From Bdellovibrionales bacterium (GTDB taxonomy: Bacteria > Bdellovibrionota > Bdellovibrionia > Bdellovibrionales > UBA1609): DNA of 64,000 bases. The stretch lies in assembly GCA_965200875.1 (NCBI GenBank), contig OZ241456.1, positions 256,001-320,000 on the forward strand, in the 5' to 3' direction. Below the pieces are notes generated by a model. It had not been told where the DNA came from and did no database searches. It saw only the letters and a program-made list of their open reading frames with translations. Below are positions 29,648 through 33,231 of the stretch, piece by piece. Positions within the stretch are counted from its first letter, which is position 1, and each line of letters opens with the position of its first letter. The position numbers were made by a program, and so were the translations under genes.

Positions 29648-30178
29648 ATGGACAAACAAAACCAATATATAAAATCAATGGAATTTTGCCAAGCTACTAT
29701 TAAAAGAATGGCTGATAATTCTTTCCGTTTGAAACAATGGTTTCTTTTAGCTGTAACCGCAATGTTCACTGTCTTTTCCAAAATTATCTTTTCTGAAAAT
29801 CAAGAATTTCATATAGACAGTCTCTTTCTTCTGGCTCCCTTGGTTATCTTCCCTTATCTGGATGCTTATTACTTGCAACAGGAAAGGCTTTTCAGAGAGA
29901 TTTACAATGATTTTATGAATTGTATAAACAACAATGAATCAAAAAGAAAACCCTTTGATATGAAACCCACAAAGGAGCAAAGAGTGAAATTTTCTATATG
30001 GAATGTGATTTTTTCGATCAGTGTAGCTCCATTTTATTTCATTATTATTTGTGTCTTGCAAGGGTTTATTGTTTATCGATCTTCTATTGACAACCCTTGG
30101 TTTTGGATGGGTGTTTTGCCGATTTTATTGATTATCTTGGGATTGATTTTTAAGAAAAAAACTTCACACCAAAAATAA
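29648..30178 (+). CDS. Multi-pass membrane protein, candidate TIR-associated effector
   Basis: Q.TIKRMA.NSF.LK.W and YLDAYYLQQER.FR.IY motifs; about 4 hydrophobic helices. Confidence 0.7.
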   Translation: MDKQNQYIKSMEFCQATIKRMADNSFRLKQWFLLAVTAMFTVFSKIIFSENQEFHIDSLFLLAPLVIFPYLDAYYLQQERLFREIYNDFMNCINNNESKRKPFDMKPTKEQRVKFSIWNVIFSISVAPFYFIIICVLQGFIVYRSSIDNPWFWMGVLPILLIILGLIFKKKTSHQK

Positions 30179-30200
30179 GAATCAGTTGGTCCTGAATAAG

Positions 30201-30728
30201 AAGATATGGATGACCAACCTTTCCTGGGGCTGGTTACCCTAATATGTGAAGTTATCCTTCTTATAAGGTATAAGGAGGGTTAATAAAACTTTTAACATAA
30301 AGGAGGTCATCCAATGAAAAAGAACATACTCCATGTCGGGCTTGATGTCGATGATAAAGCCTTTCATGGCACAGCTTTTTACTCAAAAACAGGGGAAATA
30401 TTTGAATTTTCCTGCCGACCCAATAATGCCTGTTTGCTGAAAAAACTGCAAACTCTCCAAAAAAAGGGCTTTAAACTCCATACTTGCTATGAAGCCACAT
30501 ACATCGGATACAGCCTGCACCGCTTTTTAATGAGTAAAGGCATTCAAAATAGCATCATTGCTCCATCTTTGATCCCAAAAAACCCAGGAAAATGTGTTAA
30601 AACTGATCGCATAGACAGTAAAAATCTGGCCATTTATTTCTCCAAAGAACTTCTTACAGCCATATGTGTACCAGACAAGAGTGATGAAGAGGTCCGGGAT
30701 GTTATCCGTTCCAGAAGCTTTTTAGTTC
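30201..30728 (+). mobile_element. Truncated IS110-family element (left end + N-terminal half of recombinase gene)
   Basis: Structured 113-nt leader plus DEDD-domain ORF, flanked by the two halves of element A. Confidence 0.75.
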
Positions 30729-30793
30729 GTTTAGTGGACAAGTACTTTTTCACAGACACATTTTGCAAGAAAACAATCAATTATAGACTTTGA
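30314..30793 (+). pseudogene. IS110-family recombinase, C-terminally truncated
   Basis: VGLDV, CYEAT..G, VKTDRIDS RuvC-like DEDD residues; only 159 aa; last ~20 aa read through non-IS repeat DNA. Confidence 0.88.
30729..30776 (+). repeat. Dispersed element A, internal part
   Basis: GTTTAGTGGACAAGT = 22351-22365; TTTTGCAAGAAAACAA = 59403-59418. Confidence 0.7.
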
Positions 30794-30794
30794 T

Positions 30795-31304
30795 TCAATT
30801 TCCGGCATTTCTTGCCGCTTCCTCAATCCAACTCCCTATATTATGATAGCCATTATCATTAACCCAATCATAGGTTTTGTAAATATAGTCATATCCATTA
30901 TGTAATTGAGATAAAGGTGTATTTCTTCCATTGTTATTAACTGTTAAAACATCCAATGGATTTTGTCCTAGACAATCAGTAACCTCATCTTTATTTTTTA
31001 TATTATGAATATGGATGCCTAAGATACCTTTTCCTTCTGCATAACTCTTTTGAATTTCATATTTAACATATTCTCTTGTGCTGGTTTTCGCTCCAATTAG
31101 AACTACAGTTACAGAAGTTCCTTTCATTTCTCTGTTGATCCAATTTTTTATAGCTTGATCTCCTTGTTTTTTTACTGACTCCCAACTTGCATCATCCCAA
31201 AATCCGGCTGTTGTATTTCCTTGAGTAATCCATGAGTTTCTGACCTAGCTTACTCGCCAATTATCTCTTTGATAATGAAAACTGAAAAAAACATGCCTAG
31301 CCAT
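30795..31304 (-). pseudogene. ThsB-like TIR-domain protein (DUF1863/MTH538) with an in-frame amber codon
   Basis: From ATG 31304 with AGGAG RBS: MARHVFFSFHYQRDNWRVS*VRNSW...TSVTVVLIG..T..R.YVKYEI..S; TAG at 31245-31247. Confidence 0.88.
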
Positions 31305-31315
31305 AAAACTATCTC

Positions 31316-31690
31316 CTATTGAAAAATCTTTTTTAAATTTTCCCAACTCCAGCTGTAAAGCCGTCCGGCATCAGGGACTCGCTTATAATTTTCATCATTC
31401 CGGCCAATAATCTGAGCAATGTTTTTATTATTCTTTCTGGCCATATAAACCTCTTTTAAAACTCCAGGGGCTTTGTGGGTTTTTTCACCAAGAACCACCA
31501 AAACAACATCCACGCTTTTTATTCGATTTTCTGCTTCTTCTTCCCAATTTCTTTCCGGGGCGGCTTCTTTCATTGAACAATCTGTCACTTCAAAAGGAGA
31601 GTCTGGATTTTTGGATTGTCCAATAATAAGGTCCTTTAAGTATTTGTCATTATCAAAGTCAAAGCTGATAAATACACGGGTTTTATTCAT
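31316..31690 (-). CDS. TIR-domain protein (MTH538/DUF1863-like)
   Basis: RVFISFDFDND, DCSMKE, DVVLVVLGEKT..A.GVLKEV with the putative catalytic Glu. Confidence 0.88.
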   Translation of the reverse strand: MNKTRVFISFDFDNDKYLKDLIIGQSKNPDSPFEVTDCSMKEAAPERNWEEEAENRIKSVDVVLVVLGEKTHKAPGVLKEVYMARKNNKNIAQIIGRNDENYKRVPDAGRLYSWSWENLKKIFQ

Positions 31691-31892
31691 CTTCAGAAAA
31701 ACCTCTTTGCTTTAATTCTGTTAAAAGATTTTCACTGTATCTTCTGTCTTCAAAATATTTCTTATCTCTTTCCATTTCTTCGTTAGGTAAGTTATTTAGT
31801 GCTTTTTCTACATCAAATATTGGCAAACCTTCTAAAAATGAAATTCCCAGTCTGACATTTTTTGGATATGTTTTATAAAACCTTTTTTCCAT
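31683..31892 (-). CDS. 69-aa hypothetical protein in the TIR operon
   Basis: ATG 31892 lies 10 nt after the upstream stop; its stop overlaps the TIR start. Confidence 0.6.
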   Translation of the reverse strand: MEKRFYKTYPKNVRLGISFLEGLPIFDVEKALNNLPNEEMERDKKYFEDRRYSENLLTELKQRGFSEDE

Positions 31893-31902
31893 AGATACCG
31901 CT

Positions 31903-32130
31903 TTATTTCCTTGTTTTTCTTCTAGTATAATTGTGGGAATATCCATAAAATGGTCCCGGTGTTTTCGGTCCTCCGGGATGTTGATTTTTCTTGGTGTTTT
32001 CCCAATTTTGAGCCACTTCTTGGCTGGAAAACTTCCTCTCCACTTTAAAATTGTCCAAGCCTGAAAATTCATTTTTCAATTCCTTTTCGCGTCTTTCTGG
32101 ATCACTTGTAATTCCATATCTTTTTTTCAT
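31903..32130 (-). CDS. Mini GIY-YIG-like protein A
   Basis: YGITSDPERR..E, AQNWEN, HPGGP; AAAGGAGG RBS; homologous to 32475-32696. Confidence 0.7.
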   Translation of the reverse strand: MKKRYGITSDPERREKELKNEFSGLDNFKVERKFSSQEVAQNWENTKKNQHPGGPKTPGPFYGYSHNYTRRKTRK

Positions 32131-32419
32131 AAAAATCCTCCTTTCTGTGGATTTCTCCTATAATTCATATAGTGTGGTCATTTTCTGAAAAAGCAAGTCG
32201 CCAGTTTCATTTTTTTTTAAAAGTTGGGATATTATTTTGGAATAAACAAAGAAATACCAACTTCCAAGGTTGAAGTCGCTCAGAAAGCCAGTTTCAATAT
32301 CTTTCATTCAGCTTTAAAAAGCAGGATATAGTTCTATGCTTCATAAGCCTAGGGTTTTATTTTTGTAGTGTTTTCCGCGTCTTTTCCTGAAAAAAAAGTG
32401 TCTCATTCGGTGTTATGAC

Positions 32420-32448
32420 TTGTAAGTTTTTTTTTCCAATCGTATAAT
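32420..32448 (+). promoter_or_regulatory. Putative sigma70 promoter with a T9 tract in the spacer
   Basis: TTGTAA-17 nt-TATAAT upstream of the TAAGGAG RBS of 32475. Confidence 0.6.
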
Positions 32449-32474
32449 ATGAGCGACATTATAAGGAGTAGCTT

Positions 32475-32696
32475 ATGAAATATGTCGGTATGACTTCCCG
32501 TAATCCTTACATAAGGAAACAGGAATGGGAGAATGAAGGTCGGCGTGTGTCAAACTTTGTGATTATTCAAATAGGCTTAACTTATAGTGAGGCTCAAAAA
32601 TTAGAAAACGAGTATAAAATACATGGTTATCAGGCTGAACCTGGCGGGCCTGTAGTCCACGGTGCGGTCTACTCTATTTATACTTACGAGTATTAA
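32475..32696 (+). CDS. Mini GIY-YIG-like protein B
   Basis: YVGMTSRNP..R..E, AQKLEN, EPGGP, YSIY; TAAGGAG RBS. Confidence 0.7.
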   Translation: MKYVGMTSRNPYIRKQEWENEGRRVSNFVIIQIGLTYSEAQKLENEYKIHGYQAEPGGPVVHGAVYSIYTYEY

Positions 32697-32713
32697 ACTT
32701 ATGGGAAGTTTAT

Positions 32714-32920
32714 ATGACAATAACTTTGGATTTTAATTTATTTACCGGTTTACTTACTCTGATTTTTTCTGTCGGTATCTTTTTATTTGCTTTTCAAACA
32801 TTTCTTTTAAAAGGTGTTGAGGCAATGTTAGAGGTAAAGTTTAAGCGTAATAAAGAGGAAATGGTGAAGATTTTATCTGAGGATTCGGATAAAAAATATC
32901 AAGAGAGCAAAAAAATTTAG
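32714..32920 (+). CDS. Small TM + coiled-coil protein, possibly frameshifted
   Basis: N-terminal TM helix; the -1 frame stays open to 33036 after an A7 run. Confidence 0.55.
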   Translation: MTITLDFNLFTGLLTLIFSVGIFLFAFQTFLLKGVEAMLEVKFKRNKEEMVKILSEDSDKKYQESKKI

Positions 32921-33231
32921 CTAAAGTAAAGGTTGCACAAAAGTATAATACAACCGCTTTACAGCTATTGTCTAATGATATGAGACAAGTAAAAGAAAAA
33001 ATGAGGCTTAAAAAAAATCTGAAGCTTAGTGAATAGTGTGATAAAAATTTCTTTTTGAAAATTTAAATAATCGTTTTGACAGGCTATATGAATTGTTTTT
33101 GAAGGATAAAAAAATAAGTGATATCTTCTTTAATATTTCGTCTTCGAAATCAAGGTACAATATCAAAAACAAAGCTCTTTTATGGTGTTGTTTTTAAGTG
33201 TAGACATAAGAGCTTTTGAAATGAGAAAATC

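Follow-up and report, generated by a model that had tools for sequence, protein, structure and literature searches.

A partly decayed PDC-M50/Thoeris-like cassette and GIY-YIG-like mini genes beside a tRNA-Ala gene in a Bdellovibrionales genome

Type I Thoeris pairs ThsB-type TIR proteins with a SIR2-SLOG effector. The accessible part of one study (10.64898/2025.12.03.692087) distinguishes 29 putative Thoeris types, and in types V, IX and XI the ThsB-type TIR goes with a small effector. That part reports that the TIRs of types I, V and IX make 3'cADPR, that the type V effector has three transmembrane (TM) segments and is activated by 3'cADPR, that the hydrolase serving as type XI effector comes from an actinobacterial scaffold, and that small TM effectors were modelled as membrane-disturbing oligomers. 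TIR-III and TIR-IV of E. coli are validated two-gene systems of a TIR and a partner, some with TM domains (PMC11350192, accessible part). Here we compare with these systems a locus found in a window of 64,000 nucleotides, positions 256001-320000 of contig C1 of a 1.87-Mb Bdellovibrionales genome. It comprises a membrane-protein gene, two TIR genes (TIR1 and TIR2), a small open reading frame (orf69), two genes of a GIY-YIG-like family of small proteins (mini1 and mini2) and a small TM gene (TM68), and it lies beside a tRNA-Ala gene (Table 1).

The locus is probably a defence hotspot which holds three separate pieces, and not one seven-gene system: a PDC-M50/Thoeris-like cassette, mini1 with orf69, and the pair formed by mini2 and the small TM gene. 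The cassette is real, a partly damaged copy of a candidate anti-phage type that had been catalogued before. The original prediction had called the module undescribed, a claim not supported by a PADLOC run in which the membrane protein matched four PDC-M50A profiles (best E 2.8e-28, over residues 6-137) and TIR2 matched PDC-M50B (E 1.8e-50), the two genes lying within about 0.6 kb of each other. Both TIRs exceed the cut-off of Pfam ThsB_TIR (PF08937). TIR1 retains its Glu80 and TIR2 its Glu83, which is invariant in the alignment of TIR2 homologues; we take this conserved Glu to be the catalytic residue. Among solved structures, the TIR2 family is closest to the type I Thoeris ThsB proteins 9B7D and 6LHY (E 2.5e-42), to which the conserved Glu can be aligned. 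No type I, II or IV effector (SIR2-SLOG, Macro, caspase) was matched by Pfam or PADLOC among the ORFs of the locus, in agreement with the original prediction. The view that no effector was recognisable is not supported, the membrane gene being of the PDC-M50A family, and the idea of a Thoeris-like TIR system with another kind of effector is supported.

To follow the pairing outside this genome, we used the best 80 of 128 confirmed metagenome loci of the membrane family, in 78 of which the membrane ORF was called; neighbouring TIRs were scored with a home-made TIR profile, and many of these loci are short or redundant gut contigs. A TIR gene on the same strand lies within 300 bp of the membrane ORF in 64 of the 78 loci, corresponding to 27 of 37 sequence clusters. 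As the protein matches PDC-M50 and its relatives have a TIR beside them so often, we regard the membrane gene as the supposedly missing effector. At least two TIR-like ORFs are found in 15 of the 37 clusters, and two TIRs with a membrane gene are therefore a common layout. Among the 22 nearest membrane homologues (62-89% identity), 14 have a longest contig of the same size as that of one of the 22 nearest TIR2 homologues (1338, 1812 and 2149 bp, among others), a co-occurrence read from size alone. Annotated membrane-then-TIR pairs are also present on plasmids of E. coli, Priestia and Providencia. At the level of sequence, both the membership in the family and the pairing of the membrane gene with a TIR are firm. 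The TIR-IV list in the accessible part of PMC11350192 has genera in common with these plasmid matches, but no common accession and, by eye, no common flanking primer was seen. The cassette alone adds little; it leads to close homologues of PDC-M50 that are intact, this family being a very common partner of TIRs.

The membrane protein shows three hydropathy peaks, and its predicted model (predicted local distance difference test, pLDDT, 86) has four long helices. Compared with the common 140-aa form, its C-terminus is extended by about 35 aa, which add one hydrophobic helix; about 26 relatives have this longer 176-aa form too. Fold searches returned generic helical matches only, and no profile match linked the family to an 8xMP protein. 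A four-copy complex model scored 0.26 against a mark of 0.42, which is not evidence either way. With regard to known Thoeris effectors, the window protein gave no match to the type V effector domain DUF2270 (PF10028) at E<=1; one of 38 membrane homologues matched it weakly (E 0.002), and a distant kinship is possible. No type VII SLATT effector was matched in the locus by a search that did detect the SLATT partner in genome G006. On a Rathayibacter plasmid (L279:2003-2914), a HIT domain is fused to the same membrane domain with a TIR gene on either side, and the membrane half of this fusion is homologous to the window protein (E 3.6e-26); a HIT domain was matched neither in this locus nor in 82 membrane loci. 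The cassette may belong to Thoeris type V, IX or XI, or to an unvalidated type.

By analogy with Thoeris, the TIR proteins would sense the phage and convert NAD+ to an ADP-ribose-derived signal, which for TIR2 would most likely be 3'cADPR. The signal would activate the small membrane protein, which as an oligomer would damage the membrane and abort the infection. We propose 3'cADPR-like signalling to a membrane-damaging oligomer because the TIR2 profile is nearest to ThsB and because of the findings in the accessible part of Yirmiya et al. In this scheme, mini1 and orf69 would be leading genes and not fixed parts of the cassette, while mini2 and the small TM gene would form a divergent pair recurring elsewhere in the genome.

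The locus was described in the original prediction as partly decaying, and three lesions bear this out. TIR2 carries an in-frame TAG at codon 20 (31247-31245), a column which in 22 close homologues holds Gln 18 times and Arg once, three not being scorable. Amber recoding as an explanation of this stop was rejected, since TAG is a normal stop in this genome: within the first 600 kb, it terminates 46 of the 382 long ORFs. TM68 is frameshifted in an A-run near 32910-32916, with a stop at 32920 and its tail in another frame to 33036. The third lesion, which the original prediction does not mention, is the IS110 copy between the membrane gene and TIR2, of which 535 bp out of about 1474 bp are left, full copies being present at two other genomic sites. 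The region 30701-33300 shows no difference from a short-read contig of run X1, so that the TIR2 stop and the TM68 frameshift are not long-read errors; X1 may be the source sample and hence not independent support. As TIR2 is dead, the cassette is either inactive or reliant on TIR1, which alone could signal.

An ORF scan recovered all the ORFs that had been noted and confirmed the tight coupling of the minus-strand operon: mini1 is followed after a 10-nt gap by orf69, orf69 overlaps TIR1 by 8 nt, and a ribosome-binding site (AGGAG) overlaps the TAG of TIR1. The membrane gene is convergent with this operon, and mini2 and TM68 diverge from it. The GC content of the locus (0.34-0.36) is slightly under that of its surroundings (about 0.37-0.40). 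An integrated element with att repeats was considered and rejected because no second copy of the tRNA-Ala 3' end exists on C1. Scans for promoters (13 hits, 13.8 expected) and terminators (3 hits, 3.0 expected) stayed at chance level.

Table 1. Features of the locus, in positions of the window
Feature	Position	Strand	Evidence or remark
tRNA-Ala(TGC)	29499..29574	+	border of variable region
Membrane protein, 176 aa, PDC-M50A family, intact, likely effector	29648..30178	+	PADLOC, alignment, model, TIR neighbours
IS110 remnant, 5' 535 bp, 3' side lost	30196..30730	+	
TIR2, ThsB/PDC-M50B type, pseudogene	30795..31304	-	Pfam, PADLOC
TIR1, 124-aa short ThsB-type TIR, intact	31316..31690	-	Pfam ThsB_TIR E 2e-8
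orf69, function unassigned	31683..31892	-	
mini1, 75 aa, GIY-YIG-like	31903..32130	-	
mini2, 73 aa, family of mini1	32475..32696	+	divergent from mini1
TM68, small one-TM gene with helical tail, frameshifted	32714..33036	+	

The mini family matters more than the cassette. Its members are about 73 aa long, match no Pfam model at cut-off and form 446 clusters at 50% identity. The predicted model (pLDDT 95) consists of a strand (2-7), a helix, a strand (26-35), a helix and a last strand (66-72). Among 114 mini sequences, with a mean column identity of 32%, G5 is conserved in 114, Arg14 in 112, Glu44 in 112 and Tyr69 in 113. As in the GIY-YIG domain of I-TevI, a single small domain carries a YIG-like motif with a conserved Arg in helix 1 and a helix Glu, and these blocks match the canonical positions in order. 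The mini proteins differ from that domain in length (73 aa vs 94), in their C-terminal VYxF strand and in lacking the N-terminal GIY strand, for which there is no room in 104 of the 114 sequences, where at most six residues precede the invariant Gly5. The GIY-YIG likeness of the original prediction holds for the YIG, Arg and Glu positions but not for the GIY strand. Residues 1-56 of the model align to residues 15-92 of I-TevI (1LN0) at rank 2, with a weak Z of 3.9 and a root-mean-square deviation of 2.3 over 52 residues, leaving out the GIY strand. In a BFVD search with the model, the top two viral matches were GIY-YIG proteins (E 0.8-0.9), and further weak GIY-YIG matches came from Pfam MUG113/T5orf172 (MUG113 in 7 of 19 mini members) and from the Atlas (0.89). 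Foldseek and sequence searches of the PDB found nothing at E<=0.001.

The mini fold is somewhat more likely than not to be circularly permuted, its GIY-like strand seemingly moved to the C-terminus; the domain would then be, with its 73 residues, an unusually small nuclease domain. The C-terminal VYxF block scored z 3.4 against the canonical GVYL block, but another strand matched better, and when the mini profile was permuted and compared with a UvrC-rich profile by hhalign there was no gain (14.6 vs 14.7 for the native order). The same genome encodes an 83-aa GIY-YIG protein of canonical order (C1:1523738-1523986), also found by the mini profile, which is a natural comparison for the permutation; no other was found among 300 phylum genomes. 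Ssn nucleases are stand-alone and, like the mini proteins, consist of a single small domain, but occur with NTS/SRM repeats (PMC11893778, accessible part). Using the NTS motif with up to four mismatches, NTS-like repeats were found near 1 of 81 mini loci and within 100 kb of none of the nine copies in this genome; by this test the mini protein is not an Ssn-like repeat-linked nuclease.

The mini profile hits ten places in this genome, namely seven intact and two broken mini copies and the canonical-order GIY-YIG gene, and the nine copies come from at least three lineages. Mini2 is 33% identical to mini1 and belongs to a subgroup with several copies here. Single mini queries matched in nine and seven of 14 genomes of the genus, and the profile matched in 4 of 400 phylum genomes, weakly in one. 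One subgroup has 83 GTDB loci (80 kept) in many phyla, and the names of many of the mini-bearing genomes suggest what we presume to be sponge symbionts. Viral contigs contained no mini1 relative and one member of the mini family. Literature searches, which did not cover subscription papers, found no description of the family.

Within the genus, directly downstream of mini1-type genes we found CBASS operons (two loci), a TIR + 8xMP operon (one), Schlafen together with a large protein (two) and an AAA_13 gene (one, a fragment); two further mini1-type genes face their neighbours. Relatives also precede Shedu and C5 methylase genes. Neighbours were counted at the 81 loci in classes of our own, kin not being independent and no genome-wide background being applied. 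The nearest downstream ORF is a co-oriented restriction, abortive infection (Abi) or AAA_15/21-type gene in 15 of 76 cases (12 when homologues are merged), whereas upstream such genes number 2 of 79; Fisher's test of this asymmetry gives p 0.0006 for the raw counts, 0.004 for the merged ones and 0.07 when a wider upstream class is used. The most likely reading of the mini proteins is that of minimal GIY-YIG nucleases moving in company with many kinds of defence loci, and their position before unrelated defence operons suggests an accessory gene that has been missed. A dedicated role in defence is possible, if somewhat doubtful. Also somewhat doubtful is the fuller proposal that they are a permuted minimal GIY-YIG family and serve unrelated defence operons (Thoeris, CBASS, restriction, Abi, Shedu, Schlafen) as a portable accessory or leader gene, either as a stand-alone anti-phage nuclease or as a shared regulator. 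As a separate observation, a CBASS operon (CD-NTase, E2-like, patatin; C1:1692378-1689549) is led by a broken mini1-type gene and lies near a full IS110 copy.

Several results weigh against the membrane gene being the effector of this TIR operon within a cassette distinct from mini1. An adjacent TIR on the opposite strand occurs in none of the 78 membrane-family loci, which makes the convergent layout atypical; the usual PDC-M50 is co-oriented, and the present copy further departs from it by the IS110 remnant between the genes, the pseudogenization of TIR2, the second TIR and the longer membrane protein. With this query, none of the 14 same-genus genomes yielded the membrane gene and just 2 of 108 family genomes did, in both of which it is co-oriented with a TIR. 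The event that truncated the IS110 may have deleted another, original effector. In one phylum relative (L264), by eye, a TIR1-like and a TIR2-like gene face a SIR2-like gene. A literature search found no experimental work on PDC-M50. The longest-contig sizes of mini1 and TIR2 homologues match at 1788, 12414, 18646 and 1616793, from which it follows that mini1 recurs with this TIR in the lineage. This last result, together with the tight translational coupling and with a mini1 gene placed immediately ahead of a TIR + 8xMP operon in genome G012 (L011), would suit one new integrated system that unites both TIRs and the membrane gene with mini1 and orf69 and in which the mini nuclease serves as sensor, regulator or second effector. 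We consider this very improbable, as the original inclusion of mini proteins, orf69 and TM68 among the system parts is not supported by the neighbourhood counts: none of the 80 membrane-family loci contains a mini gene, none of the 81 mini loci the membrane gene and just one of them a TIR match, while mini and TM68 are multi-copy in the genome. Moreover, mini1-type genes lead CBASS and Schlafen operons too, 1 of 23 mini1 longest-contig sizes is matched by the membrane gene, and orf69 has a single weak relative in the 14 genus genomes. The atypical orientation and the cut IS110 could also mean that an IS110-linked deletion brought together two different cassettes, that of the TIR pair and that of the membrane gene. 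The TIR operon would then have lost its own effector (e.g., SIR2), and TIR1 may signal in trans to an intact TIR + caspase operon. Such an operon, type IV Thoeris-like, lies about 980 kb away (C1:1268018-1266667), with a TIR 34% identical to TIR1, and in 13 further loci of the phylum that hold TIR1-like genes, their neighbours are, by eye, caspase-like in eight, 8xMP-like in three and another TM gene in one, the 13th having a TIR2-like gene and a convergent SIR2-like gene. Because TIR1-like genes elsewhere adjoin other effectors, the TIR1 signal may not fit the effector of this locus. The joining of two cassettes is nevertheless improbable: close TIR2 and membrane homologues co-occur, by matched size, on contigs of 1.3-2.1 kb, the nearest TIR2 homologue (P0257) resembles the copy in the window at its end and has its 1338-bp contig size matched by a membrane homologue, and neither of the two closest TIR1 relatives (60-61%) has a caspase beside it.

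For the mini genes themselves, it is quite conceivable that they are selfish or non-catalytic passengers which accumulate in variable regions and play no part in defence. The number of copies and lineages in a single genome, with two copies broken, fits such a behaviour, as does the weaker asymmetry obtained with the wider upstream class; downstream, 42 of 76 ORFs have no Pfam match, and 19 of the 34 that have one fall outside the defence list, many being metabolic. Against it, Arg14, Glu44 and Tyr69 are nearly invariant in spite of the low mean column identity. No flank similarity is common to all mini copies, and hence they have no common element ends; this and the near absence of NTS-like repeats also speak against passengers.

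With regard to the other pieces of the hotspot, orf69 matched nothing in Pfam, PADLOC, NCBIfam or the Atlas, and its one relative in the genus (30% over 67 aa) lies in a locus with no match to the TIRs of the window. TM68 follows mini2-type genes elsewhere in this genome.

Some additional TIR loci were observed. At C1:1534724-1535934, beside a mini2-type gene, a 175-aa protein with no Pfam or PADLOC match is followed by a ThsB-type TIR; this pair recurs in genomes G002 and G012, and the 175-aa protein is a candidate for a further Thoeris effector. In the relative L264, the tandem TIR1-like and TIR2-like genes (1498-3360) are convergent with the SIR2-like gene, another effector, across a gap of a few bases. 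SLATT - TIR - E2-like/SEC-C operons are present in two genomes of the same genus (L017:5092-6746 and L020:5085-6760). Within the window, positions 30745-30776 hold a 32-bp fragment of an intergenic repeat of about 300 bp with many genomic copies, and the plus-strand segment 27366-27723, unreported by ARAGORN, resembles by eye a tmRNA, with tRNA-like ends and a short tag-like frame.

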